Shown here: positions 1 through 22,047 of the stretch, piece after piece
How the letters are laid out: every line of letters begins with the position of its first letter
How positions within the stretch are numbered: position 1 is the first letter of the stretch
Assembly (NCBI GenBank): GCA_013374835.1
Contig: CP055307.1
Location: 813,304 to 877,303, forward strand
Origin: Candidatus Woesebacteria bacterium
GTDB lineage: Bacteria; Patescibacteriota; Microgenomatia; UBA8517
Direction of reading: 5' to 3'
DNA length: 64,000 bases
Notes under the pieces: generated by a model
What the model saw: the letters and a program-made list of their open reading frames with translations, nothing else
What the model was told of the DNA's origin: nothing
Databases searched by the model: none
Program-made: the position numbers and the translations under genes

Positions 1-96
1 AGTTATTTTATTGACATGTACCCCTTATTATTGACTCAGGGAAAAACAGATACAATAAAAAAGAATATAAACCACCCTAAAGATTACACAAAGTAT

Positions 97-125
97 TTTC
101 AAACAAAAAGACTTGGTATTATAAT
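97..125 (+). promoter_or_regulatory. putative sigma70-type promoter (TTTCAA-N17-TATAAT) upstream of the 178 CDS
   Basis: TTTCAA at 97-102 and TATAAT at 120-125 with 17-nt spacing, about 50 nt upstream of the 178 start. Context is AT-rich, so this could be chance. Confidence 0.25.
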
Positions 126-177
126 TCGTCTCTATCAAAAGGATTACAATTTAGATTAGAGTAAAATTTTAGAAAGA

Positions 178-894
178 ATGGGATTATCAAAAACATTTCA
201 TGAAACTATCGGTGTTGGTATTGCAAAAGCAAGAGAAGCTGCTGCAAAAAGAAGATTAAAGGAATTAGAGCCAGGAGAACACTTAGTAGAACCAATGCCT
301 GTATATATAAGTCAATTTGCAAATGCAGATAGAAATCTAATTGAAGGGTTTTATAGACGAATTAAGGATAAAGTTGCAGCAGAAAGATTCGGAGCCGAAG
401 ATCTAAACCAATTTAGCTATTGGGCGTGGAGATCTTGTGGCATCGCTTGTATCCAGGCAGTACTTCAGACAGTCTATGAATACCGTGGTGATAAATTTGA
501 ACTAACTACAATGGATTTGATTCGAGAGGGGTTAGAGTTGGGTAGATATGATATTGAAAAAGATGTCGGTTGGTATCACAAAGCCTTAGTCGATCTTTCC
601 CGTAAACACGGATTGGAGAGTTGTATGCAAAAATTTATTCCCGCGCCCGAGATAGCTTTAATTATATCAAATAATAATTATGTCATTTCTTCAGTAAAAA
701 GTAATAGCGGTGGTCATTTGTTGCTTTTATATGGTTTTAAATTAAAGAGAAAAGACGAACTTGTGGGTTTTTGGTATCACGATCCTAATAATTTTAAAAC
801 CGATGGCATGAACAGATTTATATCCAAAGAAGAATTCAACAAATTGTCGACACGCAGAATTATAAGGATATCTTTAAAGAATCAATTGGTTTAA
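178..894 (+). CDS. papain-like cysteine peptidase domain protein (peptidase C39-like)
   Basis: Cys in [12 protein letters not shown] and a downstream His ([10 protein letters not shown]) in the spacing expected for the C39-like fold. No signal peptide. No adjacent ABC transporter. Confidence 0.45.
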
Positions 895-2864
895 AGCTTG
901 GTTTTATTTAGAGAGAGAGCATTGAGAACGACTATTATTGAGCTAGCGCTCATGAAAAGAGCCCCCCATTCGGGTCTTAGTAATATCTCCCACGGGTAGA
1001 AAACTCCCGCTGCAGCTGGAATTGCAAGAACATTATAACCTGCTGCCCAGAAAAGATTTTGCTTTATCTTTGTGTTTACTATTCTTGCAAGCTTAATAGC
1101 TTTTACAACATCCATGATGTTACTTTTTACAAGAATTATTTCTGCCGACTCTATGGCCACTTGAGTTCCTGCTCCTATTGCAATTCCCACATGAGCTTGA
1201 GTTAGGCTTGGTGCGTCGTTTACTCCATCCCCTACCATAGCGACCACGTTATTCTTTTTCTGCTTCTGAAGTGCCTTAATTTTTTCAACTTTTTCGTCGG
1301 GCAAAACCTCTGAATAAACCGTATCTATTGAAAGCTCTTTTGCCACTTTTTCGGCAACTTCCTTTTTATCGCCAGTAAGCATTGCTACTTTTATCCCCAT
1401 TTCGTGAAGCATTCTAACGGCTCTTTTTGACTCCGGACGTATACTATCCTCAAGAGAAATTTCGCCAATGAACTTTTTGTCTCTAGCTACTAGGACTTCA
1501 GTTTGAGAGAGTTTTTCTTCAAGTTTAGGAATTTTTATGCCGTATTTTGCCATCATTTTCTTGTTTCCCATCAATACTCTTGATCCACTCACAATTCCTT
1601 CTGCGCCTTTGCCGGGGATGGATTTGAAAGATTTAACAGGATTTATTCTAAGACCCCTTTTTTTTGCTTCTTTTACTATTGCCTTAGCTATTGCGTGCTG
1701 AGAGTGGGATTCTAGAGAAGCTGCAAGTGCAAGTGTAGTGTTGTTGGCTACTTTTGATACTTGGAATTCGCCTTGAGTCAGAGTTCCTGTTTTATCGAAA
1801 ACAATGTAATCTATTTTTTTTAAAGCTTCAAGGCCTTTCATGTCTCTTACTAATATTCCGTTCTTCGCTGCAATAGCGGACGAAATTGTTGTAACAGTGG
1901 GAATGGCAAGACCTAATGCGTGCGGGCAGGCTATTACTATCACAGCAATTGCGAGCGTAACTGCAAATACCGCGCTTTGTCCTGACACCGCGTACCAAAA
2001 AATAAATGTGCCAACGGCTATTGTTATTGCGGTGAAGGTTAAATATCTTGCTGCTTTATCTGCAAGAGCTTGAACAGCAGGTTTTGAATTCTGAGCAACA
2101 CTTACTAAATCCATTATTTGAGAAAGGGCTGACTCTTTACCTGTTTTGGTTATTTTAACCGTCAGGCTCCCATTTTGGTTGATGGTGCCACCAATTACAC
2201 TACTCCCCTTTCTTTTTTCAACAGGCACAGATTCACCTGTAAGCATTGATTCGTTTACCAAAGATTCTCCGCTTATGACCACTCCGTCTGCCGGTATGCT
2301 TTCGCCCGGCTTAACTAAGACAAGGTCGCCTTTTGAAAGAGACGAAGTATCTATATCAATAATTTCTTTGCCCATAATTTTGTGCGCCTTGGAAGGAATG
2401 AGCTTTGCAAGCTCTTTTAAGGCTCCACCTGTTTTGGATACTGCTCTCATTTCCATCCAATGTCCGAGCAGAAATGCCGAAACCAATGTTGATATCTCCC
2501 ACCAGAGTGACTCTGCCGGAAAAAGAAAAGTGCTTGAAGCCGAAAATAAATATCCCGAAATAACAGCCAAACTGACAAGAGTCATCATTCCGAAGTTTTT
2601 TGTTTTAATTTCTTCTTTTGCCGCTTCAAAAAAGGGCGTGCCGCCATAAAGCGATACCGCCGTACCAAGAAGAAAAAGCGCTAAATTTTTATATGGAAAG
2701 TTTATTGCAAAATTAAACCACTCGCCTATTTTTGGCGAAAGAAAGAGTATGGTAACGGTAAGAGGAAGAGTTATTAAAAAGCGCCTTCGGAAACCTTCTG
2801 CCATCGATCGATGGTGATCTCCATGATTTACGTGCGTATGGCTATGGTCTTTCATGCTTGGCAT
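891..2864 (-). CDS. copB: heavy-metal (copper) translocating P1B-type ATPase, CopB-like subtype
   Basis: DKTGTLT phosphorylation motif, GDGVNDAP hinge, TM6 CPH motif (CPHALGLA), TM8 MSASS, and a His-rich N-terminus ([12 protein letters not shown]). The start overlaps the upstream rhodanese gene by 13 nt. Confidence 0.9.
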
Positions 2865-4048
2865 GCACCTCTCCCTTGGTTACTTTGATAGGGTAAATCC
2901 CCTACTTCTTTGTATATTCTCGCAGCTCCTTGCGCCGATGAGTAATCATTCCCCAGAGCGGTTTTTGCATCTACCGTATCCCATTTTATACCCTGCCTTT
3001 CGAAAAAAGTTGCCAAATATAAATATGTGTCAGGAAACCACATTGAATTCAGAGATAGAATGTATTTGTAAATTTCTCCCTCGCTTTTCCCTTCTGATAC
3101 AAGGAGTTCTATCACTGCAAGCGCCGCCATGCCGTGATTGCAATCCGGGAAGGCTGTGTGATTGCCACAGCATGGTCTATAAATATTTGAGGCTATTTCA
3201 TAGACTCTTTGCTGCTCGTCTTGGGTAAAATTTATCAAGTTAAGCTTGCCTAGATAATTTGTTGCATTTCCTTTGGATAGCGTCCAGCCTCCGGTTGATG
3301 CGAAGTTGCCTTTGGTGTCTTTGTAGGTAGTTCCCATAGGGCCTACTTCATATACTAAGCTTCTCTGAGCAAGTCCCAATGCCCAAAGGGTATTGAGAAT
3401 AAAGCGACTATTTTGATTATCAATCTTAATCAAGCTGTCTGAGCCTTTTGTCAGTATAAGCCTTTGTTCGTCAGTAAGGCTCATGAGTTCTCCATATTTT
3501 TGGTAATCTATCACGCCTGTTTCGACCAACTTCTTGGCTGTATTTTTCCAACCAACCGGAAGTGTTACCCCGTCTTGCGGAGCTATTTTATTTACTAACT
3601 TTGACAGGTCAAGCGTTTGGTATCCCGCTTTTTTCCATCCTTCCATACCACCTGATAAGTAGCTTACGTTTTTGTAACCTAAGCCCTTTAGTGTCTGAGC
3701 GGCTTTTTTACTCATGGATCCGGTTTTGCAATAAAGAATAATTCTAGCTTCTTTATCTTTAGGAAGCTTTTCCTTACTTGCAATTAAAAAATCATATTCT
3801 ATAAATAAATCTGTCTTTTCGATTTCACCCTCATAAGGAGTGTGGACGTTTATAAAAATAAAATCTTTGTTTTGGAGATTATCGCTAAGCTCTCGTATTG
3901 AAATATCTGAGACTCGATTTTTGTCTTTGTTAATCAAAACTCCCGATCGCGTTGCTAATAGCATAATACCCGGAAATACGGTGCCTAAAAGGATAATCTT
4001 TCGAAAACTAAACTTATGAAGTTTTTTTGTAAATTTATTAGATAACAT
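2852..4048 (-). CDS. membrane-anchored rhodanese-domain protein with a Cys-rich C-terminal domain of unknown function
   Basis: N-terminal TM helix. Rhodanese active-site region is [15 protein letters not shown]...GGMEGW. A roughly 250-aa C-terminal domain carries [14 protein letters not shown]. Translationally coupled to copB. Confidence 0.6.
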
Positions 4049-4571
4049 AATTTATTAGATAAAAAACAACAAAACTTAATAAAAGCATCGCACCAAGACT
4101 AAAAATTATCGGCTGATACGGGAAAAGAACCTTTCCTTTTGATTTTTTAATCGCTTGGTTTATAAGATCCGTAGAATAAAAGATGGCTCCGCCAAAAACA
4201 ACACCGAATACCAGCTTTGGGAGATTTAAGATTAAGCCGTTGTGTTCATTTACCAGTCCGAACTTATAAAAAGAGAGAACGGTGAGTATAAAAGTCGCAA
4301 GATATATTACAAACGATTGCATAGGGATAAAGCGTTTCTTTAGTGTATTTGCAAACCAGAGGCTCATTGCCCCAAGAAATGCCGCAAACCATATGCCCGT
4401 TATGGAGTCGTCTATTCCCAATATTCTTGAGAAAGAAAGGCCGGCTCCGGCACCGGCTACGCAGAGAGGACAATGGGCATGTGCCAAAGGCGGATTTAAA
4501 AGTGAAAGGTTAAAAATAAAAAAAAGCTGAAAAAAAAGAACAAAAATATACTTGAGCATTGAATTTTTCAT
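4038..4571 (-). CDS. polytopic membrane protein with HAHCPLC motif
   Basis: Several hydrophobic helices and HCPLC near the first helix. Overlaps neighbours by 11 nt and 7 nt gaps, so operon context supports it. Confidence 0.5.
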   Translation of the reverse strand: MKNSMLKYIFVLFFQLFFIFNLSLLNPPLAHAHCPLCVAGAGAGLSFSRILGIDDSITGIWFAAFLGAMSLWFANTLKKRFIPMQSFVIYLATFILTVLSFYKFGLVNEHNGLILNLPKLVFGVVFGGAIFYSTDLINQAIKKSKGKVLFPYQPIIFSLGAMLLLSFVVFYLINYVI

Positions 4572-4577
4572 TTATTC

Positions 4578-5072
4578 TCAATTTACTACTGTGCCCTCAA
4601 ACTTTAATTCCTTTATGCCTTCAGGATCTGAAAAGAAAAGCCAAACAATTCTTTCAAAATATCCCATGCCCTCAGATCCATGCGCCGCCGGGTCGAATTC
4701 TACTTTAACCGTCGCCACTTCATCGGCTGGAATATCTATATTGATTGGAGGATTTTTGTCAGTCGCGTGCTCCATTCCGAATAATTTTGACTCCTTACCA
4801 TTTATCGAAATAGAAGCATTAGTGCACATGCATGAAGTTGCTATTTTTTTTAGCTTTATAGATTTTCCCGATTTGTTTATTACCTTGTATTCTTTTTTTA
4901 CAAGTCCACCGTTTATTGGGACATTGCCTAAATCATAAGACGCGGGGTCTACGCTAACTGCGCCCACTTCGCCCAAAACTTTATTTTTGCCATCATTAAA
5001 TGTAGAAATACCTACGATTGAAAGAAATGAAATAATAATAAGAAATAAAAATGTTTTAATGTCTTTTCCCAT
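4578..5072 (-). CDS. secreted protein, DUF1573-like (TSCxCT motif)
   Basis: N-terminal signal/anchor followed by a beta-rich domain with TSCMCTNASI, resembling the conserved SCGCT of DUF1573 family proteins. Confidence 0.45.
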   Translation of the reverse strand: MGKDIKTFLFLIIISFLSIVGISTFNDGKNKVLGEVGAVSVDPASYDLGNVPINGGLVKKEYKVINKSGKSIKLKKIATSCMCTNASISINGKESKLFGMEHATDKNPPINIDIPADEVATVKVEFDPAAHGSEGMGYFERIVWLFFSDPEGIKELKFEGTVVN

Positions 5073-5343
5073 TTTTTTCCGACTTTCTAAAAACGGATAC
5101 TATTTCTTCAATTAATTTCTTCTTTTTTGCAGGAGGCGAGCTGATTTTATCCAATACGCATGTCTCAAGGTGTCCTCTTAAAATTATTTCATCTACTTTT
5201 TTAAGTGCTGCCTGGACTGCTTGAGATTGATGGATGATATCGGGACAGTACGCCTCTTCTTCAACCATGCGAATTACTTTTTTTAGGTGTCCGTCAATTA
5301 TCAAAAGCCTTTTAGATGTTTGTTTTTTGATTTTATTATTCAT
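5056..5343 (-). CDS. csoR: copper-sensing transcriptional repressor, CsoR/RcnR family
   Basis: YCPDIIHQSQAVQAALKKVDEIILRGHLETC gives C-x24-H-x3-C ligand spacing, as in Cu(I)-CsoR. I moved the start to the ATG at 5343, which is preceded by the G-rich SD GGGGGGGGTAGGG. The ORF track began at an upstream TTG at 5364. Confidence 0.8.
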   Translation of the reverse strand: MNNKIKKQTSKRLLIIDGHLKKVIRMVEEEAYCPDIIHQSQAVQAALKKVDEIILRGHLETCVLDKISSPPAKKKKLIEEIVSVFRKSEKNGKRH

Positions 5344-5346
5344 CTT

Positions 5347-5404
5347 ATTCCCTACCCCCCCCAAAGGGATATTAAATATTAAAAATAAATCTTTAGTTTG
5401 TCAA
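5347..5404 (-). promoter_or_regulatory. consensus sigma70 promoter (TTGACA-N17-TAATAT) with GC-rich pseudo-palindrome/G8 tract in the 5'UTR of csoR; putative CsoR operator
   Basis: Minus strand reads TTGACA (5404-5399), a 17-nt spacer, TAATAT (5381-5376), then ATCCCTTTGGGGGGGGTAGGGAAT (5370-5347) directly before the csoR ATG. Inverted TCCCT/AGGGA arms flank a G8 run. Confidence 0.55.
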
Positions 5405-5410
5405 TGCTGA

Positions 5411-5836
5411 TTATTCAACTACCAGCGTTCCTTCCATTCCAAGCTGTCTGTGATTGCCTATATCGCAGTAGAATGTGTAAATTCCAGGCTCCGCTTCGAA
5501 ACTAAATTCCATACCACTTTTAAGGTTTTCTTTAACTCCCAGCTCGTCTATCACAAAAGTGTGAATACCGCTGTTTTCCGCTACTTTGATAGTAATTTTC
5601 GGACCTTTTACCGTAATCTCGTTTGGTTCAAAGAAATAATTGCCTGATCTTATTTCAACCATTTCTATTTCAGCTTGATCGCTTTCCGCAGACTCTTTAT
5701 CAACATTTTCCCCTACCTCTTGATTGCTAGTAGTCATAAAAACATTTTGATTTCCTTTACCTTTAAAAACATAAATTCCTACTAATAGCAGCACTATTAC
5801 ACCAAGTGCTACTATAATGCCAGTATTTTTAATCAT
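5411..5836 (-). CDS. membrane-anchored cupredoxin (azurin/plastocyanin-like type-1 copper protein)
   Basis: N-terminal TM anchor. His in SGIHTF. C-terminal FYCDIGNHRQLGM gives C-x4-H-x4-M, the azurin-like ligand spacing. Confidence 0.75.
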   Translation of the reverse strand: MIKNTGIIVALGVIVLLLVGIYVFKGKGNQNVFMTTSNQEVGENVDKESAESDQAEIEMVEIRSGNYFFEPNEITVKGPKITIKVAENSGIHTFVIDELGVKENLKSGMEFSFEAEPGIYTFYCDIGNHRQLGMEGTLVVE

Positions 5837-5852
5837 CAGCTATCACCCCCTT

Positions 5853-6335
5853 TTAATCTAGATATTTATCCGGGTTTTTTTTGAACATATCTAAACAAGT
5901 TTTTTTACAAAAGTAGAATTGACGTTTTTTATACTTATAAGAAAACGGTGCTGTTTTGGGACACAATCTTGTTTTACAGACAGGATCGTGCGCCAAAGGG
6001 ACAAGATCACTCATTTTTTTATTTAAGATTTTTTCGAAATCTGTATTTTTGTATTTTTTGATCAAAAACTCACGTATAAGGCTTGTTGATTTAATAAAAT
6101 TAGGATCTGAAATTTTATAGAAAACATTTTTGCCTTTTTTATTTGTTTCAACAACGCCCGCGTCGCGAAGGATGCCAAGATGCTGACTTAGATTGGCTTG
6201 TGGAATATCGAGCATTTCTTCGATTTCTGCAACACATAGTTTTTTGCTTCCAAGAAGGCTTATTATTTCCAATCTTTTAGGGTGGCTTATGGCTTTAAGA
6301 AGATCAGCGTGGAGTTTGAATACTTGATGATACAT
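5853..6335 (-). CDS. ArsR/SmtB-family HTH regulator fused to a C-terminal Cys-rich YHS/TRASH-like metal-binding domain
   Basis: wHTH region LCVAEIEEMLDIPQANLSQHLGILRDAGVV. C-terminal tail CKTRLCPKTAPFSYKYKKRQFYFCKKTCLDMFKKNPDKY. Confidence 0.75.
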   Translation of the reverse strand: MYHQVFKLHADLLKAISHPKRLEIISLLGSKKLCVAEIEEMLDIPQANLSQHLGILRDAGVVETNKKGKNVFYKISDPNFIKSTSLIREFLIKKYKNTDFEKILNKKMSDLVPLAHDPVCKTRLCPKTAPFSYKYKKRQFYFCKKTCLDMFKKNPDKYLD

Positions 6336-6377
6336 ATTCGATATTTCGAATATATTACTTTCTAAGTTTTAAGTCAA
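6334..6377 (-). promoter_or_regulatory. promoter-operator cassette copy 1: TTGACT-N17-TATATT overlapping perfect palindrome ATATTCGA-TATT-TCGAATAT at the ArsR-like start codon
   Basis: Minus strand: TTGACT (6377-6372), 17-nt spacer, TATATT (6354-6349). The palindrome at 6334-6353 runs into the ATG at 6335-6333. The cassette lies in the last codons of ccdA. Confidence 0.5.
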
Positions 6378-7086
6378 TAAGCGCTTCTGAATTTTTTAAA
6401 ACAAAAGCCGAGAGAGTTCCGTATATACCAGTTAACATTAAAACGCCGAAAATTATTAATAATATACCGGATATTTTTTTTATATTTGGCCCGTATTTAT
6501 TTAGTATTTTTAACTTGGGGTAAAAAAAATCAAACGACAATCCGATTAATAAAAAGGGTAAAGAAAGACCCAGCGAAAATAAAAAAAGAAGAATTAGCGC
6601 AGAAGAAAAGGCTTGGGAAAAACTTATCCAAAGAAGTATTGTTGCCAAGACAGGTCCCACACACGGGGTCCATGAAAAAGCAAAAAACGCGCCAAGAATA
6701 AACCCTCCTGCTAAAGAGAATTTTGTCGGCCTCCGGTTTATAGAATAAGTTTTGTAGAATAAATCTATCTTTATAAATTCACCTAATAAAAGCCCCAGAA
6801 ATATAATTAGTACTGCCGAAACTAATCTAATGAATTCGCTATACATCGCTACGGATCTGGCTAGCGAATTTATTGTTGCTCCCATTATAAAAAATACCGA
6901 AATAAAACCCAGAGTAAAAAGTACTGCGTTTTTTAAAAATATTATTTTTGATTTTTTGTTTCCAATACCCGACGCTGAAAGATAGCTAACATAAATGGGG
7001 GCTATGGGGACTAAACAACCCGCAAAAAAAGTTAAAAAACCGGCAATAAATGAGGTCAAAAAATTAACGATCGAAATCGGAGGCAT
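6355..7086 (-). CDS. ccdA: cytochrome c-type biogenesis / thiol-disulfide transporter CcdA (DsbD-beta family)
   Basis: Six-plus TM helices with the conserved Cys-containing motifs FLAGCLVPIAPI and SWTPCVGP. Confidence 0.8.
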   Translation of the reverse strand: MPPISIVNFLTSFIAGFLTFFAGCLVPIAPIYVSYLSASGIGNKKSKIIFLKNAVLFTLGFISVFFIMGATINSLARSVAMYSEFIRLVSAVLIIFLGLLLGEFIKIDLFYKTYSINRRPTKFSLAGGFILGAFFAFSWTPCVGPVLATILLWISFSQAFSSALILLFLFSLGLSLPFLLIGLSFDFFYPKLKILNKYGPNIKKISGILLIIFGVLMLTGIYGTLSAFVLKNSEALIDLKLRK

Positions 7087-7091
7087 TAAAT

Positions 7092-7829
7092 TTAATTAAG
7101 CATTGCGTCAACCGCGCTTTTTAGCTGATCAAGCGGTATAGCTCCGGGAATTAGTTTTGTTTCTCCTGTTTCAGTATTTAGGAGTATATTTCCAGGCGTG
7201 CCGGTAACACCAGCACGGACACCCGAGTCGTAGTCAGCACTTACCAGATCTGCCGTTTCGCCCGAATCAAGACATGTTTGGAATCCTGCTTGATTTAATC
7301 CAATTTCTACAGCAAAATCAGGAAGAAGTGCTAGATCCAGACCATTATTCGCCGGGGTTACTTCGAATATTTTATCTATATATTGCCAAAAAGCTTCTTC
7401 TCCACCAAGCTTTCCTGCGCATTCTGCCGCCTCTGCCTCTTTAGGCGCTTTTGAATGTAGCTGCTCCAAAGGAAAATGCCTATAAACCCACATAACTTGA
7501 CCATTATACTCCTCCATTAACCTTTGTACAGTTTCATGAAAGTTCTTACAAAAAGGACACTCAAGATCCGAGTATTCTATAAGCGCTAACTTAGCACCTC
7601 TATCGCCTCTTACCCAATCTTTATCTGTGACTGGATCGACATCTTTTGCTATAGGCTCGACGGGAGCTGTTGGATTATTTTTTAGCGCATTCGAAGCTTC
7701 ATTTTTGGAAAGCACTTGCCCCTTTTCCATCATTTTTACTTTTGTCCAGAGGCTACCGATTATAAACGACCCAACAACAAGAGCGATAACCAGTAAGTAA
7801 ATGAAGGCATTGTTTTTGTTAATATTCAT
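7092..7829 (-). CDS. membrane-anchored thioredoxin-fold thiol:disulfide oxidoreductase (DsbA/TlpA-like, CPFC active site)
   Basis: DLECPFCKNFHE CxxC motif in a thioredoxin-like domain. N-terminal TM anchor. I placed the start at the ATG at 7829; the track used an upstream TTG at 7871. Confidence 0.75.
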   Translation of the reverse strand: MNINKNNAFIYLLVIALVVGSFIIGSLWTKVKMMEKGQVLSKNEASNALKNNPTAPVEPIAKDVDPVTDKDWVRGDRGAKLALIEYSDLECPFCKNFHETVQRLMEEYNGQVMWVYRHFPLEQLHSKAPKEAEAAECAGKLGGEEAFWQYIDKIFEVTPANNGLDLALLPDFAVEIGLNQAGFQTCLDSGETADLVSADYDSGVRAGVTGTPGNILLNTETGETKLIPGAIPLDQLKSAVDAMLN

Positions 7830-7871
7830 ATTCAATATTTCGAATATATAAACTCTTTTAACCCATGTCAA
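7828..7871 (-). promoter_or_regulatory. promoter-operator cassette copy 2: TTGACA-N17-TATATT overlapping palindrome ATATTCAATATTTCGAATAT at the thioredoxin-like gene start
   Basis: Minus strand: TTGACA (7871-7866), 17 nt, TATATT (7848-7843). The 20-bp palindrome at 7828-7847 differs from copy 1 by one base and again overlaps the ATG at 7829-7827. Confidence 0.5.
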
Positions 7872-7878
7872 CTACCAA

Positions 7879-8610
7879 TTACTCAATATGCGCAAGGACA
7901 TACATAAGAGAAATGCCGAGAATAAAAATGGCGAAATAGATAAGAGATTTTTTGAGACTTGTTTCATTTCTTATTTCTGGCATTAAGTCTGATGAAGCAA
8001 TATATATAAATCCTCCTGCTGCAAAGGGTGTCAGAAATTCTATAAATATATATCTATAAGAGGAGATATAGTAGCCCATCAAACCACCTAAAACAACCAT
8101 AAGAGCGACACAAAAATTGAGGATAAGAGCCTTGGATTTTCCCCACCCTGCATAGAGAAGTACACCGAAATCACCGATTTCTTGAGGTATTTCATGTAGC
8201 GCGACTGCTACGACCGTAACCCAGCCGAGTCTTACATCAACCAAAAAACTTGAAGAGATAATAAGCCCGTCGATAAAATTATGAACAGAATCTCCTATCA
8301 AATTCATTATACCCATCGCATGGCGATCGCATTGTCCTTTATGGCAGTGGCGCCAATGAAAAATTTTCTCAACCAGAAAAAAAACGATAAATGAAAACAA
8401 AACTAATAAAAATGCCTTTTCTGCTTCGAAATTTTCAAGAGATGCTGGAAGAAGATGAAGAAATGCGCCACCCATAAGAGATCCTGCTGATAAAGATATC
8501 ATATAGAATATAGCTCGCTCAAGCGTTTTTGTGGCAATTCCAAGAGTGAAAATCCCAATCAAAGCCCCGGACGATATTAGAAATGTGGAAAAAACTATAT
8601 ATAAAATCAC
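7879..8610 (-). CDS. zupT: ZIP-family divalent metal (zinc/iron) transporter, ZupT-like
   Basis: HNFIDGLII and HEIPQEIGDFGVLL signature helices of ZIP transporters. Confidence 0.8.
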   Translation of the reverse strand: MILYIVFSTFLISSGALIGIFTLGIATKTLERAIFYMISLSAGSLMGGAFLHLLPASLENFEAEKAFLLVLFSFIVFFLVEKIFHWRHCHKGQCDRHAMGIMNLIGDSVHNFIDGLIISSSFLVDVRLGWVTVVAVALHEIPQEIGDFGVLLYAGWGKSKALILNFCVALMVVLGGLMGYYISSYRYIFIEFLTPFAAGGFIYIASSDLMPEIRNETSLKKSLIYFAIFILGISLMYVLAHIE

Positions 8611-8784
8611 TTACAAGCATTCTAGCACAATTTTTAATTGCTGTAAGTTTAAATTATTGTATCACCTTTTCTTATGACCTTCCGATTAACACATTGACTA
8701 CCCCGCCTCTGTTCTGTAGGATTTAATAACCTTTTTAAGAGTAATTAAGTCGTTTCTCATAAGCATGATGGTGGATTATGCAGT

Positions 8785-9093
8785 ATGGAGTTACCTTTGT
8801 TAAAATTAATTATGGATGAAACAAAAAAGCTTCTGGTTTTGAAAAAAGATGGATCAAGTGAAGTTTTTAACCCCGATAAAATTGCTAAAGTTGCACATGC
8901 GGCTGGATTAAGCGAAGATGAAGCCCTTGATATCTCCGAAAAGATAACCAATAAATTGATGAAAGAAAACGCAAATAAAATAACAAGCCTCAGAATTAGA
9001 AACATGGTGGCTTTCGAGCTTAAAAAAAGAGATAAATACGCCCATGACCTTTATATTTGGTACGAAAAGACAAAAGACAAAAATGGCCGCTAA
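8785..9093 (+). CDS. stand-alone ATP-cone domain protein
   Basis: KKDGSSEVFNPDKIAKVAHAAGLSEDEALDISEKITNKL...ITSLRIRNMVAFEL matches the ATP-cone fold. There is no NrdR zinc ribbon and no RNR catalytic domain. Confidence 0.5.
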   Translation: MELPLLKLIMDETKKLLVLKKDGSSEVFNPDKIAKVAHAAGLSEDEALDISEKITNKLMKENANKITSLRIRNMVAFELKKRDKYAHDLYIWYEKTKDKNGR

Positions 9094-9400
9094 ATACAAG
9101 GAATACTTCCAGTTGATGCTTAAAAACCACAAAGAAGACTTTGAAAAATTTCGTGATATTCATGACAGATACTCTTTAAACCAGCACGAGCTCCAAAAAG
9201 AGTTTAACGAAGTGGGATCAAAAATTGTTCGTATCGTAAGAAACTGGGAAGACAAGCTTTGTAATAGATCCGAAGGGAGCGGATATGGAAAGTTTAGCAG
9301 CGCTTTATCCGAAAAATTCAATGAGGAGGTAAGGCGCGAGTTTCCGATGTTTGATTCAATAGGCTTGGCTATTTTTGAGATTAAAAAAATTAATCTTTAA
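9044..9400 (+). CDS. hypothetical protein (likely real start at the internal Met near 9083)
   Basis: Long ORF with no same-strand alternative. Overlaps the 3' end of the ATP-cone gene in another frame. Confidence 0.35.
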   Translation: MTFIFGTKRQKTKMAAKYKEYFQLMLKNHKEDFEKFRDIHDRYSLNQHELQKEFNEVGSKIVRIVRNWEDKLCNRSEGSGYGKFSSALSEKFNEEVRREFPMFDSIGLAIFEIKKINL

Positions 9401-9869
9401 GGGATGATTCGTATTTTCTTAGCGCTTCGAGCTGTTCTTTTTCCAAGTGGATTTCAGGTCGTGCCTTTTTTACTCTTTCTACCGCTCTTTTAACGCTACT
9501 GCCTTTTGAAATAAGATAAGCCGATACTAAAGTAGGAGATCTGCCATGGCCGTAAAGACAGTGAACAAAAACTTTGATATTGCTTTTGACTAACGAGTCT
9601 AAAAATGCCACACCCGCTGATAGCTGACTTTGGCTTGGAGCTTTTCTGTCCGGTACTTTAAGCCAAAGAAAGTGTAAAAGATCGGGAACGCCCATCCGAC
9701 GCTTGTCGTCAAGATCAATTTCTGCTTCTACTCCAAGCTTTTTGAGAAAATCATTATAGCTGTGCTCCTCACAGCAGAGGTTTGAACCTAAAAAAATTTG
9801 GTCTGTGATTTGACTAAAATCGTATTCTTGTTTGTGATCTTGAGGCATAATTAAAACTTTATTTCCCAA
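9390..9869 (-). CDS. dual-specificity/tyrosine protein phosphatase (CX5R)
   Basis: VHCLYGHGRSPT is the HCxxGxxR(S/T) P-loop of the PTP/DSP superfamily. Confidence 0.7.
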   Translation of the reverse strand: MGNKVLIMPQDHKQEYDFSQITDQIFLGSNLCCEEHSYNDFLKKLGVEAEIDLDDKRRMGVPDLLHFLWLKVPDRKAPSQSQLSAGVAFLDSLVKSNIKVFVHCLYGHGRSPTLVSAYLISKGSSVKRAVERVKKARPEIHLEKEQLEALRKYESSLKD

Positions 9870-10270
9870 TCAAGACTCGGGATTCTTAAGGTTTCTTCGC
9901 GGAAGTTGACAATATCGAGTTCTTTTTCCATTTTTTGTATACGCTCTTTTATCTTTAGAATTTCTTCGTCTTTAGAGTATGGTGATAGGTTTTTGATCTC
10001 GGGCTGAATTGGCACCGTAGGAAGCGGAGATGGAGTTTGCTCTAGGTTATTGCTTTTAATCATTCTGAAAGCAAAGGCTGCTATAAATACTATAAAAATT
10101 AGAAGTACCAAAAAAGCTGCAAGTTTTATCAATTTATTTTTAAAATCTAAATTTGTAATTTCTTGTAAAATTAAATTAATTTTTTGTTTAATAGAATTTT
10201 TTTTATCCACCTTGCTCACGTCGATAGGAGTATCTATCTCATTATTTATTTCACTATTATTGTTATCCAT
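9851..10270 (-). CDS. hypothetical single-pass membrane protein
   Basis: Central TM helix (LAAFLVLLIFIVFIAAFAF). Overlaps neighbours as in an operon. Confidence 0.45.
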   Translation of the reverse strand: MDNNNSEINNEIDTPIDVSKVDKKNSIKQKINLILQEITNLDFKNKLIKLAAFLVLLIFIVFIAAFAFRMIKSNNLEQTPSPLPTVPIQPEIKNLSPYSKDEEILKIKERIQKMEKELDIVNFREETLRIPSLDWEIKF

Positions 10271-10273
10271 AAT

Positions 10274-11089
10274 TTAGGTCTCTTCAAATTCTTTGACAAT
10301 TTCTTTCATAAACTGGTTTGCTTCCCTTAAAAATTGGTTTGATTCTTGAAGAAGGCTGATTGTATTATTGTAAACTTTTTCTAAATCCTTGTCTTTGATA
10401 CTACCGGACTGTATCGACGCAATATTGGTCTGAGCGGCTACTTCTTTGTCTATACTTCTTGTTAGCTTGTTTTCTGTTTCTATGATCCATCTTTCTATTT
10501 TTGTGGTATCGTGATCACCTTTTTGACGAACTTTTTCGGTTTTATTTTTGATATCCTCCAGGATGGAGCTTGTTTCGGTCTTAAATATTTCCACCTTTCC
10601 GACGGGTACAACAAGAAGGACTTCGTAAATTAAAGGTTTAGTTAAAAAAAAATGCTCTGCAGCCTCAAGCGAATCTTCTGAAAGATCAGTAAGTGTTCCA
10701 GCAGAGGGAATCTGGCTTTTGTGATTTTTAAACCAGGCCACTTCGCTATCTATTCGTGTAAAAAGCCCTTGTTTTTCGGCATCCGTAATCCCATCCGATT
10801 CGGAAAGAAGCATTCTTAATGTAGTAAGATATGTTATTACCACGTCGTCTCTTTTTTCAAGCATTATTGCCGTTGCGTCTCTGGCTTTTGTTTGAGATGC
10901 AAGAGTTTTTGCCTGATTATACTGAGTTTTGGCAAGAAGATAATCAGAGTGTGCCTTTTTATAAAGCTCGAAGGTATAAACATAATCTTTGTAGGCTTTT
11001 TGATAATCAAAATCTTCTTGGGAAAAAGTGACGTGGACCGAGAAGAAAAATAGTATAAAAAATAAAAGAATCCCCAAGAGTCTTTTCAT
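10274..11089 (-). CDS. hypothetical secreted protein
   Basis: N-terminal signal peptide (LLGILLFFILFFFSVHVTFS). Helical, charged remainder. Confidence 0.5.
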   Translation of the reverse strand: MKRLLGILLFFILFFFSVHVTFSQEDFDYQKAYKDYVYTFELYKKAHSDYLLAKTQYNQAKTLASQTKARDATAIMLEKRDDVVITYLTTLRMLLSESDGITDAEKQGLFTRIDSEVAWFKNHKSQIPSAGTLTDLSEDSLEAAEHFFLTKPLIYEVLLVVPVGKVEIFKTETSSILEDIKNKTEKVRQKGDHDTTKIERWIIETENKLTRSIDKEVAAQTNIASIQSGSIKDKDLEKVYNNTISLLQESNQFLREANQFMKEIVKEFEET

Positions 11090-11113
11090 AGAATTTATTG
11101 TAGCAAAAAATGC

Positions 11114-12460
11114 TTAACAGATTCTATATAAAGGATCACTAAGAATAATCCTTATTCTGTTTAATTGTTTCCTCATTTTTTTAAACCCGGTAGATTCATT
11201 TTGTCTTATTCTTTCTCTTGTTACTCCAAAAATTTTTGCAATTTCTTCGAGTGTAAGACCTTCTCTTTCATAAATTTTCCTGAATAAATTTATATCTACC
11301 TCATCCAATTCGTTTGGATTGCTTGGTAACGGGATATCAAGATTAAGGTCTGAAATATACTGAAGGTATTCTTTATCGTTACTAAAAGATACATCTTCCC
11401 CAATTAAAGAGCCACTTCGCAGCAAAAGTACTGCAATTTCTCTTTTGCTAAAATCGTATTTTGTTTTTCTAGCTTGATTTTCATTTTTTGCAAGAGTCAG
11501 TAAATATTCTCTTATACTGCGACGGAAATCTTTATGTGATATTTCATAGTCTATATTAGAGTTCGTATCCCTTACGGTCTCGCCAAGAGTTATGTCATTA
11601 TTATCTTTGCCATTTATTTCTAATGGCTTATCAAGAGATGTCGGTTTTTGAACAGATTCGCGTATAAATCTAATTGTATTTACACTAATACCTAAATCTT
11701 CGGCTATTTCTTCATCGGTTATGTTTGTGCTTCCTAAATGCTGGAATAGCTTTTCCTCAGAACGTCTAATGCGAAAATAAAGATGAGTTATATCTTCAGG
11801 GAATTTTATTAGCCGACCGTTGCTTTTGATATAGCGAAGTATTGCTTGCCTCACCCAAATAGAAGCATATGTAGAAAATCTTTTACCAAGAGTGTGGTCA
11901 TACTTTTGTACGGCTTTTATTAAACCAATTGTTCCTTCCTGAACAAGATCTTCGAGCGGTATATTTAATCTGTTGTTTTCGTATTTGCGTGCAACAAAGA
12001 GCACAAGCCCCAAATTGGCTTCAATCATAATTTGTGCAGCTTTTTCGGATGTTTCGGGATCGAACGCAGTGGAATTTATCATCTTTGAAAGAAATATTTC
12101 TTCAGGATGTGTAAGAAGGCGTACGTTCCTGTGTTTTTTTGAATACCGGCTTATAATAAATTCTTCAAAATATTCGTCCGTTAATATGGAATCTTTTGAA
12201 CCTGTTGCTATCTTGTGATTTTCAGACGACCAATAATTTTCATCAAAAACTGCTATCGCTGCAAGTATTGCCAATACCCTTTGGTGCGTATTTTCATCGG
12301 TTATTCCCAATTCCGAAAGGTGCACTTGAGATATGGCAACAGGCTCTTTACCGAATTCGTGAAGCAAAGGGGCATAACCATAGAGTTCACGAATTCTGAT
12401 TGATACTTTGAAATATTTATCCTGTTCTAAATTTTTGGGTATATTAAATTCTACAGTCAT
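11114..12460 (-). CDS. rpoD: RNA polymerase sigma-70 family factor (RpoD-like)
   Basis: Region 2 DLVQEGTIGLIKAVQKYD...FSTYASIWVRQAI and region 4 LTLEEIAKIFGVTRERIRQ. Confidence 0.85.
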   Translation of the reverse strand: MTVEFNIPKNLEQDKYFKVSIRIRELYGYAPLLHEFGKEPVAISQVHLSELGITDENTHQRVLAILAAIAVFDENYWSSENHKIATGSKDSILTDEYFEEFIISRYSKKHRNVRLLTHPEEIFLSKMINSTAFDPETSEKAAQIMIEANLGLVLFVARKYENNRLNIPLEDLVQEGTIGLIKAVQKYDHTLGKRFSTYASIWVRQAILRYIKSNGRLIKFPEDITHLYFRIRRSEEKLFQHLGSTNITDEEIAEDLGISVNTIRFIRESVQKPTSLDKPLEINGKDNNDITLGETVRDTNSNIDYEISHKDFRRSIREYLLTLAKNENQARKTKYDFSKREIAVLLLRSGSLIGEDVSFSNDKEYLQYISDLNLDIPLPSNPNELDEVDINLFRKIYEREGLTLEEIAKIFGVTRERIRQNESTGFKKMRKQLNRIRIILSDPLYRIC

Positions 12461-12515
12461 ATTGAGGCGGAATATAACAGCTTTTCAGAGTGTTTGTCAA
12501 TTTTTAACCCGTAGT

Positions 12516-13166
12516 TCAGCCAAGAGCTGTTAGTGTTTCTATCGAAATATCTGTAAAATCGTCAACAACAAAATCTGCTCCCTCAAGGCTTTCGAACCCC
12601 TCGTGATTCGCGATCCCAATTGCTTTCATACCCGCTCTCTTTGCCGCCATTATCCCGGCGTTTGCATCTTCAAAAACCACGCATTCTTCAGGGATAACTT
12701 CGAGTTTTTTTGCTGTTAACAAAAATATATCCGGCGCCGGTTTTGAATTCTCAACTTCTTCGATTGTGGTAAAAATGTTGAAGAATTTTCTGAGTTTAAA
12801 TCTCCTGTTAACGATTTCTAAAACGTGTTTATCGTTTGATGTAGCAAGCGCTTTTTTTAAATTGTGCCTTGCCAGCTCCACAGCGAATTTTTCAAAACCT
12901 TTTTTAAATGTTACTCTATCTATAAGGCTTAAATACTTTGACTGTGTTTTATTTATCAAATCTTTGATTGAAAGGTCTGTTTTTATATCGTATTTTTTAA
13001 TAAATTTGAGCCAATTTGCCTGAAGTCCCACTCCTGATGTTTGAGGATGGGGATCTTTTGTCTCTATCCCCAATTCGGACAAGACTTGATTAAACGCCTC
13101 TGCGTAAACCGACTCGTTTGACAGGATTGTGCCATCCAAATCAAAAATTGCAGCCTTTATTTTCAT
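12516..13166 (-). CDS. HAD-superfamily hydrolase (beta-phosphoglucomutase-like)
   Basis: N-terminal DxD motif AAIFDLDGTI. C-terminal GDxxxD-like motif (FEDANAGIMAAKRAG). Confidence 0.8.
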   Translation of the reverse strand: MKIKAAIFDLDGTILSNESVYAEAFNQVLSELGIETKDPHPQTSGVGLQANWLKFIKKYDIKTDLSIKDLINKTQSKYLSLIDRVTFKKGFEKFAVELARHNLKKALATSNDKHVLEIVNRRFKLRKFFNIFTTIEEVENSKPAPDIFLLTAKKLEVIPEECVVFEDANAGIMAAKRAGMKAIGIANHEGFESLEGADFVVDDFTDISIETLTALG

Positions 13167-13170
13167 AAAC

Positions 13171-14616
13171 TTATGCTTTTAATATACGCGAGCCCTCTCT
13201 TGTGTCGATAATTTTATAACCTTTAAGCTCTATTTCTTTTCTTAGTTTATCTGCATTTAGATAGTCACCTTTTTTTCTAAATTCATCTCTTTGTGCATTA
13301 AGACTTAATATTTTTTGAGGAATTTCAGCCCCGGCGCTACTTATTTCAGCTATTTTAAGACCCAAAACTTCGTCAAAAAGATACATCAAATCCAGCTTAT
13401 CCGAGCTTGGAATATTGCTTTTTACAACCGCCCAGAGGACAGCCAACGCCTTTGGTGCATTGAGGTTGTCATTTATGCTACTTATAAAATCTTGCCTGAA
13501 AGAATCTATTTTTTGCATTTTTTCTTCGGAAAGAGTTTTTCTTTCACTTTCGTTTTCATTTTTTATTTCTCTTGCAATAGAGTATAAATTAGAAAGTGTG
13601 TTTTGTGCTGATTCGAGTGCTTCCCAAGTGAAATTTAGCGGATCTTGATAGTGTGCGTTTAAGTATAAATATCTAAGAGCAATCGGGTTTATTTTTTTCT
13701 TTTCAACATCCGAAACCGTATAAAAATTACCAAGACTTTTGCTCATTTTTTTACCTTCGACCAGAAGAAAGCGCACGTGAAGCCAATATTTTACAAACAG
13801 CTTCCCTGTCGCACCTTCCGATTGAGCAATTTCATTCGGATGATGAATTTGTTTTAGATCTTCTCCGCCTGCGTGAATATCAAAGGATTCTCCCAAGTAT
13901 TTCATGCTCATGGCCGAGCACTCGAGATGCCAACCAGGAAAACCTATTCCCCAAGGACTTTCCCATTCCATATGCCGCTCGCCGGGATTATTGCTAAGTT
14001 TCCACAAGGCAAAATCTCTGGGGTCTTTTTTCTGGAGATTTTTTGAAACGCGCGCGCCTTCTTTTATTTCGTCAAGATCGCTTAACTGTCCGTATTTTTT
14101 GCCTGTTGCTTCTTCAAATTTTTTTATATCGAAATAGATCCCGTCGTCGATTCTGTAGGTTAAGCCTTTTGATTCGAGATTTTTAATCAGTTCAACCTGC
14201 TCTTTAATATGATCAGTGGCCCTTGCAAAAAGCGTTGGCTGCGAAAGATTTAATTTTTTAAAATCGCTTAAAAATGCCTTGGAATAAAAATCAGCAATTT
14301 GCCACGCTGTTTTACCTTCTCTTTTTGCTCCTTTTTCCATTCTATCCTCACCAGTATCCGCATCTCCCTGATTATCGCCAGTAAGATGGCCTACATCAGT
14401 AAGGTTCATAACGTATTTAACCTTGTAGCCATTGAATCTAAGTGTCCTATAAAGAACATCTGCAACTGTATATGTTCTAAAGTTGCCGATTGAGGCATAA
14501 TCATAAACCGTCGGGCCGCAAGTGTACATTTTTACTTCGTCAGAATTAAGAGGCGTGAACTCTTCAACTTTTCTGGTAAGCGAATTGTAAATTTTAAGCA
14601 TATTAAGATTATACAA
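13171..14616 (-). CDS. cysS: cysteinyl-tRNA synthetase
   Basis: MYTCGPTVYDYASIGNFR with HIGH-region equivalent, and KMSKSLGN. Confidence 0.9.
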   Translation of the reverse strand: MYNLNMLKIYNSLTRKVEEFTPLNSDEVKMYTCGPTVYDYASIGNFRTYTVADVLYRTLRFNGYKVKYVMNLTDVGHLTGDNQGDADTGEDRMEKGAKREGKTAWQIADFYSKAFLSDFKKLNLSQPTLFARATDHIKEQVELIKNLESKGLTYRIDDGIYFDIKKFEEATGKKYGQLSDLDEIKEGARVSKNLQKKDPRDFALWKLSNNPGERHMEWESPWGIGFPGWHLECSAMSMKYLGESFDIHAGGEDLKQIHHPNEIAQSEGATGKLFVKYWLHVRFLLVEGKKMSKSLGNFYTVSDVEKKKINPIALRYLYLNAHYQDPLNFTWEALESAQNTLSNLYSIAREIKNENESERKTLSEEKMQKIDSFRQDFISSINDNLNAPKALAVLWAVVKSNIPSSDKLDLMYLFDEVLGLKIAEISSAGAEIPQKILSLNAQRDEFRKKGDYLNADKLRKEIELKGYKIIDTREGSRILKA

Positions 14617-14627
14617 CTTATATGTTT

Positions 14628-15062
14628 TTAATTTTTTGCGCCACGGCCGGTTTCGCGAAATGCCATTTTTTGCATTATTTTTGCCTTAATGCCTTTTGCA
14701 GAAGGAAATCCTCTCTTAGGTTTACTTTCAGGTACTATTAATCCTTTCTCTTCCTCATCATCTTTTCCAATTAACTCTTCCTGCTTCTGAGACCATTCCT
14801 TATATTCTTTTTGCCTTTTTTCGAAAAGCAATTTTTCTTCGTCTTGAATTTCTCTCAAGCGCTTTCGCCAGAACGCAAGCAATTCTTCTTCCTTTTTTTT
14901 AAGATCTTCTTTTTTAAGCCTAGCTGTTTCTTGCTTGGCAAATAAGGGCGGATTTATTGCTCTTTCGGATGACAATCCCGCTTGATTTAATGCGGATTTT
15001 AAGAATTCTCTTGATTCGTCTTTTGCAAATTTTAATAGCTTTTGCTTTGGTTTTTGATTCAT
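14628..15062 (-). CDS. hypothetical charged (Lys/Glu-rich) protein
   Basis: Clean ORF filling the gap between recR and cysS with a 3-nt overlap with recR. Confidence 0.45.
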   Translation of the reverse strand: MNQKPKQKLLKFAKDESREFLKSALNQAGLSSERAINPPLFAKQETARLKKEDLKKKEEELLAFWRKRLREIQDEEKLLFEKRQKEYKEWSQKQEELIGKDDEEEKGLIVPESKPKRGFPSAKGIKAKIMQKMAFRETGRGAKN

Positions 15063-15673: not shown

Positions 15674-15712
15674 GTCTATGGTAATTTTAGCAAAGAAGTT
15701 AAGAAGTAGATA

Positions 15713-15997
15713 TTATTTTAATCCACCAAGAAGACCACTTAGGCCGCCGCCCATTTCCATCATTTTTTGGGCTGCTTTTTTTTGTACTTTTTTGAAAGCT
15801 TCGTTTACAACCTTTTCGATGTCTTCGCGTCTTTCTTCGCCGTCTTTGATATAAATTACTTTTTGATCAGCCGACACTTTGACGACGATATTATCTTTTT
15901 CAACCGTTTCGGTCACTTCAGCAAGCTCGCTTTGAAGCTTTTTAGCTTGCTTTCGCATTTCCAAAAGTTCTTTTCCTTTTTGAATTTTGTCAAACAT
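15713..15997 (-). CDS. ybaB: nucleoid-associated protein YbaB/EbfC
   Basis: Size, coiled-coil character and C-terminal GLLGGL, in the conserved dnaX-ybaB-recR order. Confidence 0.85.
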   Translation of the reverse strand: MFDKIQKGKELLEMRKQAKKLQSELAEVTETVEKDNIVVKVSADQKVIYIKDGEERREDIEKVVNEAFKKVQKKAAQKMMEMGGGLSGLLGGLK

Positions 15998-15999
15998 AT

Positions 16000-22046: not shown

Positions 22047-22047
22047 A

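Follow-up and report, generated by a model that had tools for sequence, protein, structure and literature searches.

The stretch of DNA considered here (the window) comprises 64,000 nucleotides of a Candidatus Woesebacteria genome (assembly GCA_013374835.1, contig CP055307.1, positions 813,304 to 877,303 of the forward strand). Ten adjacent open reading frames (ORFs) lie on the minus strand between positions 891 and 8610, and housekeeping genes occur in the remainder of the window. Read from 8610 downwards, the ten genes encode a ZIP-family metal permease, a membrane-anchored thioredoxin-fold protein, the thiol-electron carrier CcdA, an ArsR-type repressor fused to a YHS domain (ArsR-YHS), a cupredoxin, a CsoR-family repressor, a DUF1573 protein, a membrane protein with an HCPLC motif, a rhodanese fusion protein and a copper ATPase. 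All features given below are on the minus strand unless a strand is stated. A preliminary description, made from the sequence alone, had presented these genes in this order as one copper and thiol-redox operon of a reduced genome. The ORFs, their order and the copper and thiol-redox theme were confirmed, and a reduced genome is consistent with a Patescibacteria/Microgenomates-type source, the nearest homologues with a name being labelled Microgenomates or Woesebacteria. Profile searches (Pfam with its curated cut-offs, and NCBIfam in addition) agreed with all of the protein assignments, including those of the cupredoxin, CsoR and the CopB-type ATPase, none of which failed. Every domain-bearing protein of the cluster scored above its Pfam curated cut-off, and the HCPLC protein belongs to no Pfam or NCBIfam family.

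The lower five genes run from 5343 down to 891 and begin with the CsoR-family repressor (5056..5343; 95 amino acids, aa), which matched PF02583 (Trns_repr_metal) with 79.1 bits against a cut-off of 22.8. It aligned to Mycobacterium tuberculosis CsoR (2HH7) with an E-value of 1.4e-12, pairing "aycpd" with "aycvd" and "ghletc" with "nhletc". The Cys-His-Cys residues occupy positions of the YC…HLETC motif of 2HH7 that we take to be the Cu(I) ligands C36/H61/C65 of that structure. The match to the M. tuberculosis and Thermus thermophilus CsoR proteins (E ~1e-12) is far better than that to 7MQ1-type proteins, presumably CstR (E 3e-6). CstR is defined by two reactive Cys and no His at the metal-ligand position, and here the His is present. 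Judged by these alignments, the regulator has the pattern of a Cu(I) sensor and not that of a persulfide sensor (CstR).

At the other end of this group is a P-type ATPase of 657 aa (891..2864) with E1-E2_ATPase and Hydrolase domains (184.4 bits for E1-E2_ATPase), which also matched the copper/heavy-metal P1B models TIGR01511 (598 bits, cut-off 397) and TIGR01525 (602 bits, cut-off 346). In the alignment with Archaeoglobus fulgidus CopA (E 4e-141), the fourth transmembrane segment pairs "acphalgla" with "acpcafgla", placing CPH opposite CPC, and the phosphorylation motif "fdktgtlt" is aligned. The CPH motif and the His-rich N-terminus reported in the preliminary description were both found, the latter with 6 His in the first 30 residues, and the Pfam search detected no HMA domain. 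From these three features the ATPase is predicted to be CopB-type (P1B-3-like).

Between regulator and pump are three proteins with Cys motifs. The first is an Ig-like DUF1573 protein of 164 aa (4578..5072; PF07610, 38 bits) with an N-terminal anchor and the sequence TSCMCT (CxC). TSCxCT is present in 71 of 75 DUF1573 relatives. FGM and a His are conserved too, and a sequence search found no relative with a solved structure. Selenoprotein forms of DUF1573 bear a UGC motif (PMC9312934, PMC13188914), which would mark the CxC as a site of redox chemistry or metal binding. The second is the HCPLC protein (4038..4571; 177 aa), with a signal-like segment, the motif A-H-C-P-L-C and about three further hydrophobic segments. 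It has 153 homologues in which "AhCPlC" is conserved, and the few with a named source are from Woesebacteria. It is distantly related (hhalign E 1.5e-5) to a membrane family of ~147 aa with "CP(I/A)C(A/T)GV" in the first helix and a C-terminal CC. Genes of that family were seen directly before the third protein's homologues in other loci (L048 1320-1763, L051 9433-9876, L053 7881-8324, L059 9233-9682, L067 7885-8322 and L075 9202-9666).

The third protein, of 398 aa, is a fusion. Its rhodanese domain (3614..3916; 46.8 bits over residues 84-141) is of the single-domain, PspE/GlpE-like kind, with the catalytic Cys in a six-residue loop (C107-K-T-G-S-M-S). Residues 146-398 (2855..3613) form a domain of ~250 aa that we call XC. 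It contains YRPCCGN, ends in a GxCxx tail and has as its hallmark an invariant CC…CxH together with a Cys near the C-terminus, formed in the window protein by C293, C294, C303, H305 and C396. XC was matched by none of the Pfam and NCBIfam models, even at Pfam E <= 10 over 20 members. Pfam searches of ten longer XC proteins found BNR repeats in one and nothing else, and a profile search of the Protein Data Bank (PDB) gave nothing useful, with CcmH not among the hits. Scanned exhaustively with HMMER, 1.84 billion representatives yielded 586 XC relatives at the 50%-identity level, 419 of them at E <= 1e-10. The whole fusion has thousands of database relatives, the best 120 of which align over the full length at 51-96% identity.

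A fold search with the model of the full-length fusion returned rhodanese matches only, and XC was then modelled alone. The sole fold outlier for the XC model was the thiol reductase CcmH, whose three-helix bundle is present in the model. When the XC profile was aligned to CcmH with hhalign, the expected register was obtained (PKCQNQ-DIADSNAP…GKSDGEIVDYMV) at an E-value of only 0.085, and of the LRCxxC motif only the second Cys aligns, XC having R-P-C-C. By the model, XC holds a CcmH-like helical subdomain with an altered Cys pattern, and we do not file it as a member of the CcmH family. It differs from CcmH in having a vicinal CC in place of CxxC, an extra Cys-x-His, the C-terminal Cys and an added α/β subdomain of ~130 aa. 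CcmH, with CcdA/DsbD and CcmG/ResA, belongs to the reducing branch of cytochrome c maturation, and the genes that accompany XC are copper genes and not cytochrome c genes. Patescibacteria are not known to have cytochromes c.

We fetched 80 loci via XC, one genome per GTDB species, and searched them with profiles of the ten window proteins. Counts refer to genes on the same strand and within 5 kb of XC unless stated, and they are lower bounds since many loci end at contig ends. XC occurs in at least 598 species-representative genomes from many Patescibacteria lineages, and the rhodanese-XC protein was also found in two DPANN archaeal loci. The CC…CxH and C-terminal Cys are present in 75 of the 80 XC proteins. 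A DUF1573 gene accompanies XC in 63 loci, a csoR in 50 (CsoR or ArsR in 55) and a copper ATPase in 52, and an HCPLC or CcdA gene lies within 1.5 kb of it in 63. The upper genes are represented by a DsbA-like thioredoxin in 13/80 loci and an ArsR-type gene in 11/80; the cupredoxin was found in none. Thus the lower five genes (csoR, DUF1573, a CPxC protein or CcdA, XC and the copper ATPase) are a module conserved across Patescibacteria. The co-conservation that the preliminary description would have expected of all ten genes holds for these five and fails for the set, and its emphasis on the cupredoxin, a rare protein, is not supported.

The module varies in composition from lineage to lineage. 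XC is without the rhodanese in more than 50 of the 80 loci, where matches begin at about residue 148, and in six loci (L036, L041, L043, L045, L068 and L074) the rhodanese is fused to DUF1573 and not to XC. ArsR-YHS heads the module in place of CsoR in L036, L068, L074 and L080, and ArsR-YHS, CcdA and thioredoxin genes recur in shuffled orders. The partner ATPase has CPC and an HMA domain in 29 cases and CPH in 17; ATPases of both types are copper exporters. CcdA stands at the HCPLC position in many loci. We considered whether HCPLC replaces CcdA, and this holds only in part, since some lineages have both CcdA-like and CPxC genes.

Two further small, conserved proteins are encoded near XC in these loci. 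In many Parcubacteria/Saccharibacteria-type loci (L038, L040, L047, L061, L064, L066, L070 and L083), XC has a neighbour of ~170 aa (for example L040 9291-9803) that contains "…NEGETWC(I/V)(S/A)KHLL…", ends in "CCDE" or "CCEE" and has no obvious signal sequence; this protein is absent from the present window. A membrane protein of ~137 aa with "NHANCLAAIPGS…C(V)(N/G)GM" is encoded between csoR and XC in L038 (8785-9198), L047 (8771-9184) and L061 (8878-9294).

Upstream of the conserved module are four genes for thiol-redox and metal-binding proteins. The thioredoxin-fold protein (7092..7829, with the ORF extending to 7871; 245 aa) is DsbA-like and membrane-anchored by one N-terminal hydrophobic segment, carries CPFC and matched Thioredoxin_4 (76.7 bits) and DSBA (53.4 bits). 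Among proteins of the PDB it is closer to the disulfide isomerase 4N30 (E 7e-23) than to the ScsC copper-resistance structures 6NEN, 6MHH and 4GXZ (E 1e-6 to 4e-5). CcdA (6355..7086; 243 aa) is a DsbD-core membrane thiol-electron carrier (PF02683, DsbD_TM, 60.4 bits) with six hydrophobic segments and membrane Cys in "AGCLVPIAP" and "WTPCVGPVL". The ArsR-YHS protein (5853..6335; 160 aa) joins an ArsR/SmtB-type repressor (HTH_5, 53.4 bits against a cut-off of 22; NF033788, 86.1 against 55) to a C-terminal YHS/TRASH metal-binding domain (PF04945, 39.5 bits against 30.3). The YHS part reads C-x22-C-x3-C, and the YHS/TRASH motif was reportedly defined by Ettema in 2003 as C-x(19-22)-C-x3-C.

The cupredoxin (5411..5836; 141 aa) has the type-1 ligand set His…Cys-x4-His-x4-Met and matched Cupredoxin_1 (38.5 bits, cut-off 27) and Copper-bind (27.5 bits, cut-off 21.2). 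Its "ihtf" and "ycdignhrqlgmeg" are in register with the ligand regions of 4HCF, 2DV6 (the N-terminal cupredoxin of a copper nitrite reductase) and 6TFD. One N-terminal hydrophobic segment anchors it in the membrane, with flanking charges compatible with either orientation. A word-index search yielded only seven homologues, and those in other genomes lie outside copper clusters or loosely near copper genes. Together with its absence from the 80 related loci, this distribution marks the cupredoxin as an apparently rare, lineage-specific addition.

The ten genes are probably organized in three or four separately switched units and not in one operon. Independent gene calls and comparison with the closest relative place the csoR start at the ATG at 5343 and the thioredoxin start at the ATG at 7829; homology to that relative starts at 7854 and leaves out the upstream TTG at 7871. 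With these starts, gaps of 67 nucleotides (nt) precede csoR and 49 nt the thioredoxin gene (previously 46 and 7), which corrects the spacing given in the preliminary description at these two places and leaves its short gaps and overlaps standing elsewhere. Within the units the junctions are tight: gaps of 5 nt (thioredoxin/ccdA), 16 nt (arsR/cupredoxin) and 6 nt (DUF1573/HCPLC), and overlaps of 17 nt (csoR/DUF1573), 11 nt (HCPLC/rhodanese-XC) and 13 nt (rhodanese-XC/copB). The gaps within the thioredoxin/ccdA and arsR/cupredoxin pairs and the overlaps among the lower five genes fit co-transcription within each unit.

Promoter-like sites were located by a consensus scan of window positions 1-10000, scored by matches out of 12. 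The operators were missed by an inverted-repeat finder in the regions upstream of ZIP and csoR, where the arms are short; they were seen by eye and confirmed by pattern searches. The site before the thioredoxin gene (TTGACA-17-TATATT, 7843..7871) has 11/12 matches, the best score in the scanned region. The -10 element overlaps a palindrome with one mismatch, ATATTCGAAATATTGAATAT (7828..7847), which abuts the ATG at 7829. The site before arsR-YHS (TTGACT-17-TATATT, 6349..6377; 10/12) has its -35 element within the 3′ end of ccdA. Its -10 element overlaps a perfect 8-4-8 palindrome, ATATTCGA-AATA-TCGAATAT (6334..6353), which abuts the ATG at 6335. We regard the two palindromes as putative operators of ArsR-YHS, an inverted repeat overlapping the regulated promoter being what is expected of an ArsR/SmtB operator. 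The 20-mer ATATTCGAAATAT(C/T)GAATAT has exactly two copies in the 64 kb, with 0.07 expected by chance. A box of the form ATATTC-N8-GAATAT is also found directly before the ArsR-YHS ATG in the unrelated loci L074 and L080, and with one mismatch in L068; the L080 20-mer is identical to that of the window. This recurrence is a phylogenetic footprint of the putative ArsR-YHS operator.

The promoter-like site before csoR (TTGACA-17-TAATAT, 5376..5404; 10/12) lies inside the 67-nt gap and is followed by a different box, the C/G-tract pseudo-palindrome ATATCCCTTTGGGGGGGGTAGGGAAT (5347..5372), which is single-copy in the window. Equivalent palindromes, such as ATATCCCCTATAGGGGGATAT or ATACCCCTAGGGGGTAT, stand upstream of csoR in most of the related loci and often abut a TTGACA. 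CsoR sites are described as pseudo-palindromic and as containing four or more consecutive G or C (PMC10318464), and the candidate csoR boxes agree with this.

The -10 candidates end only ~13 nt before the ATG codons of arsR-YHS (6335) and the thioredoxin gene (7829), with no Shine-Dalgarno sequence between, and the same crowding was seen at L074 8809 and L080 ~6987. The mRNAs of these two genes may be leaderless or nearly so. An ATATTC-N8-GAATAT box also occurs at L030 5270-5289, where no ArsR-YHS gene was detected nearby. It lies ~17 nt upstream of a small ORF starting MCYNCGCDNPDD, which may encode a small Cys-rich metal-binding protein under similar control.

The ZIP gene (7879..8610; 243 aa; PF02535, 152.6 bits) is probably a separate unit outside the conserved cluster. 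The long form of its ORF is supported by the alignment of the ZupT model, which spans residues 11-236. L084/L085, the closest relative, shares 94% identity with the window across positions 412-7854 and has all the genes from the thioredoxin through copB. It lacks the ZIP gene, with 244 nt (L084 5737-5980) in place of window positions 7855-8888, and in L084 the cluster is headed by the same thioredoxin promoter and operator with no ZIP upstream. On the strand of XC and within 5 kb of it, ZIP was found in 0/80 loci; on the opposite strand it was found within 9 kb in 2/80. The view of ZIP as part of the system was dropped after comparison with this ZIP-less relative. The promoter-like site before ZIP (CTTACA-17-TAGAAT with a TG extension, 8619..8647; 9/12) is weak alone. 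Nested inverted repeats (ACTTACA…TGTAAGT around CAATT-AAA-AATTG, 8619-8660) overlap this site and may be an operator for some regulator. Besides the ZIP gene and the region upstream of it, the segment missing from the relative includes the 5′ end of a divergent ATP-cone gene, and the 244-nt replacement, an indel, holds three short GNRA-type hairpins, for example GCGTAAGC.

The preliminary description had placed all ten genes in one transcription unit, which would be read from a single promoter upstream of ZIP. All ten genes are indeed co-directional with short gaps or overlaps, and we found no convincing intergenic terminator between them; terminator-like hits all fall within coding sequence and are no commoner than in shuffled sequence (11 against 8.1). 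However, all the long ORFs from 9390 to 25280 are likewise on the minus strand, so that co-direction is weak evidence for an operon here. Exactly at the starts of three internal genes there are promoter-like sites with operator-type palindromes, each of the two different repressor genes directly follows a candidate operator of its own, and in the nearest relative the cluster begins at the thioredoxin promoter and operator. We consider a single ten-gene operon unlikely.

We favour, with some reservation, a reading of the region as a Patescibacteria copper-stress island of three or four adjacent same-strand units. It would combine copper export controlled by CsoR and ArsR-YHS with a thiol-reducing, Cu(I)-handling relay, presumed to be on the outer face of the membrane, and would thus function much as a cop system joined to Scs/CueP, though built of new parts. 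From the gene identities, the ligand motifs, the repeated operators and the conservation of neighbourhood and operators, we infer the inducing metals, the topology, the direction of electron and copper flow and the biochemical roles of DUF1573, HCPLC and XC as follows. In the lower unit (5343 down to 891: csoR, DUF1573, HCPLC, rhodanese/XC and copB), a rise of cytoplasmic Cu(I) would release CsoR from the G-tract operator at its own promoter and derepress the unit, and CopB would export Cu(I). Made together with the pump, DUF1573 (CxC), HCPLC (CPLC) and XC (CC…CxH and C-terminal Cys, plus the rhodanese Cys) would act on the outer face, either by taking up and buffering the Cu(I) that CopB has exported or by passing on reducing equivalents to maintain exofacial thiols in the reduced state.

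The middle unit (7829 down to 5411), comprising thioredoxin-ccdA and then arsR-YHS-cupredoxin, would be governed by the two palindrome copies, both of which we assign to ArsR-YHS. This repressor would sense metal by its TRASH-type Cys3 domain, and its release would derepress both gene pairs. CcdA could then carry electrons from cytoplasmic thioredoxin outward to the CPFC protein, and the latter could repair, by reduction or isomerisation, the disulfides that copper stress produces, among them those of the lower-unit proteins. The cupredoxin would be an add-on that binds copper or transfers electrons. The ZIP permease, which has a promoter-like site to itself, would be a neighbour unrelated to the system. 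The partners of CcdA act outside the cytoplasm. The outer-face placement is assumed on this ground and from the N-terminal hydrophobic segments of DUF1573, HCPLC and XC.

Several points weigh against this scheme. The soluble domains are each preceded by a single hydrophobic segment at the N-terminus, for which a positive-inside charge count fixes no orientation. The membrane-tethered cupredoxin-fold chaperone CupA of Streptococcus pneumoniae is cytoplasmic. The rhodanese suggests a sulfur chemistry that the scheme does not need, and XC has no significant sequence-profile match to CcmH (no Pfam CcmH at E <= 10). ArsR-YHS could respond to another metal instead of copper. The promoter scan gave 28 sites in total, against 27.5 in shuffled sequence, for which reason the division into units is argued from the presence, placement and conservation of the operators. 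Long transcripts could still arise by read-through from promoters further upstream, and co-transcription across units may occur, being compatible with the data.

The rhodanese leads to another explanation of the lower module, as a response to reactive sulfur (persulfide) in which the CsoR-family protein acts like CstR, sulfane sulfur is trafficked by the rhodanese and the Cys proteins, and the ATPase is a bystander. CstR-type CsoR paralogues typically repress adjacent rhodaneses (PMC10318464), a rhodanese whose active-site Cys is invariant forms part of fusions with XC or DUF1573, and the ArsR part of ArsR-YHS matches the BigR model, although below threshold (70.6 bits against a cut-off of 155). 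Yet the regulator keeps the Cys-His-Cys triad and is nearer in sequence to CsoR than to 7MQ1-type proteins, as shown above. A copper ATPase accompanies XC in at least 52 of the 80 loci, whereas the rhodanese is dispensable, most XC proteins being without it. A persulfide response seems improbable on this evidence, a little more so than the single operon.

Assembly of a cuproprotein, in which CopB would supply copper to the cupredoxin or to some other exported cuproprotein, with the thiol relay keeping the Cys ligand of that protein reduced, would parallel TlpA/Sco or CcoI-type delivery pathways and accommodate the type-1 cupredoxin in mid-cluster as well as CcdA, thioredoxin and the CcmH-like domain, parts used in cofactor maturation (the maturation of cytochrome c and of CuA employs CcdA/thioredoxin/CcmH-type parts), but it is very unlikely, given that the module persists in loci that are without the cupredoxin, that elsewhere the cupredoxin homologues lie away from copper genes or at most in their loose vicinity, and that a CsoR repressor implies expression under copper excess, which fits detoxification and not supply.

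The copper-stress island resembles several known systems in its parts. Like the CsoR-cop operons (csoR-copZA of Bacillus subtilis and the cso operon of M. tuberculosis), the lower unit has a Cys-His-Cys CsoR, a C/G-tract operator at its own promoter and a P1B copper ATPase. Unlike them, it has no CopZ/HMA chaperone, a CPH/His-rich pump instead of a CPC/HMA pump and three membrane-anchored Cys-motif proteins between regulator and pump. Salmonella ScsABCD, with CueP, shares with the window a metal-controlled DsbD-family carrier beside a thioredoxin-fold CxxC protein. Both the DsbD-like ScsB and the thioredoxin-like ScsC are Cu(I)-binding proteins, and under copper stress they guard the thiols of the envelope (PMC10907172; for the Scs precedent see also PMC8900818). 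In contrast to ScsB, the CcdA of the window is a DsbD_TM core of 243 aa without periplasmic domains (36.9 bits with the DsbD model, cut-off 330), and Pfam and NCBIfam searches detected no ScsA or ScsD among the ten genes. The Scs regulators are CpxR and CueR, whereas those of the window are ArsR-YHS and CsoR, and XC and DUF1573 are unrelated to CueP. Patescibacteria are probably single-membraned, in which they differ from the Salmonella host of Scs.

In archaea, CopR/CopT combine a helix-turn-helix (HTH) with a TRASH Cys3 metal-sensing domain and control copper genes (PMC7830388). ArsR-YHS is like them in its fused TRASH/YHS domain and unlike them in its HTH, which is of ArsR/SmtB-type (HTH_5) and not Lrp-like, and in its bacterial host. 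Cupredoxins of copper resistance have precedents in CopI of Rubrivivax and CupA of S. pneumoniae. The window protein shares with these its small size, the cupredoxin fold, an N-terminal membrane segment and a place among copper-resistance genes. It differs from CopI in its score with the CopI model (16.7 bits, cut-off 280) and, in its plastocyanin/azurin-like type-1 H-C-H-M ligands, from the Cys/Met Cu(I) cluster of CupA, and it is not conserved with the module. Likeness to the Tso selenoprotein operon is limited to domain types, with scores below the NCBIfam cut-offs (TsoB 28.4 and 17.9 bits against 805; TsoR 41.8 against 115). Each element has a precedent in CsoR-cop operons, Scs, HTH-TRASH regulators or the cupredoxins of copper resistance. 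The preliminary description had not recognized the architecture as a described cop/cus/cue system, and full-text literature searches found no description of it, nor of a CsoR-box-controlled module of a copper ATPase, DUF1573, a CPxC protein or CcdA, and XC.

We tentatively propose, as two claims to be taken together, that csoR-DUF1573-CPxC/CcdA-XC-copper ATPase is an undescribed copper-handling system widespread in Patescibacteria, and that the XC proteins form a new family, derived from the CcmH/CcdA branch of cytochrome c maturation, that binds Cu(I) or reduces thiols. That branch would have been re-used at the pump exit, where copper would be received, reduced or sequestered. The genomes of Patescibacteria and DPANN archaea are tiny, and most of their conserved genes of unknown function are uninterpretable. 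XC, a family without a Pfam or NCBIfam model, is now tied to a definable stimulus and pathway by three independent lines: the conserved CsoR operator, the conserved adjacency of copper ATPases and the exchange of domains with rhodanese, DUF1573 and CcdA. Should XC, DUF1573 and the CPxC proteins indeed handle copper on the outer face, they would add a new class of proteins to the known copper chaperones or reductants. This would show how ultra-small episymbionts cope with copper, and would give DUF1573, a family with selenoprotein members, a testable function. The two operator motifs offer handles for reading metal regulons in uncultured lineages.

A search of window positions 1-10000 against Rfam found no RNA family. 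Beyond copB, a convergent ORF of 238 aa (178-894, plus strand) with no Pfam family overlaps the stop of copB (891-2864, minus strand) by 4 nt, and we saw no terminator-like structure between the two. In the relative L084, a gene for an rve_3 integrase is located ~200 nt past the counterpart of this convergent ORF.

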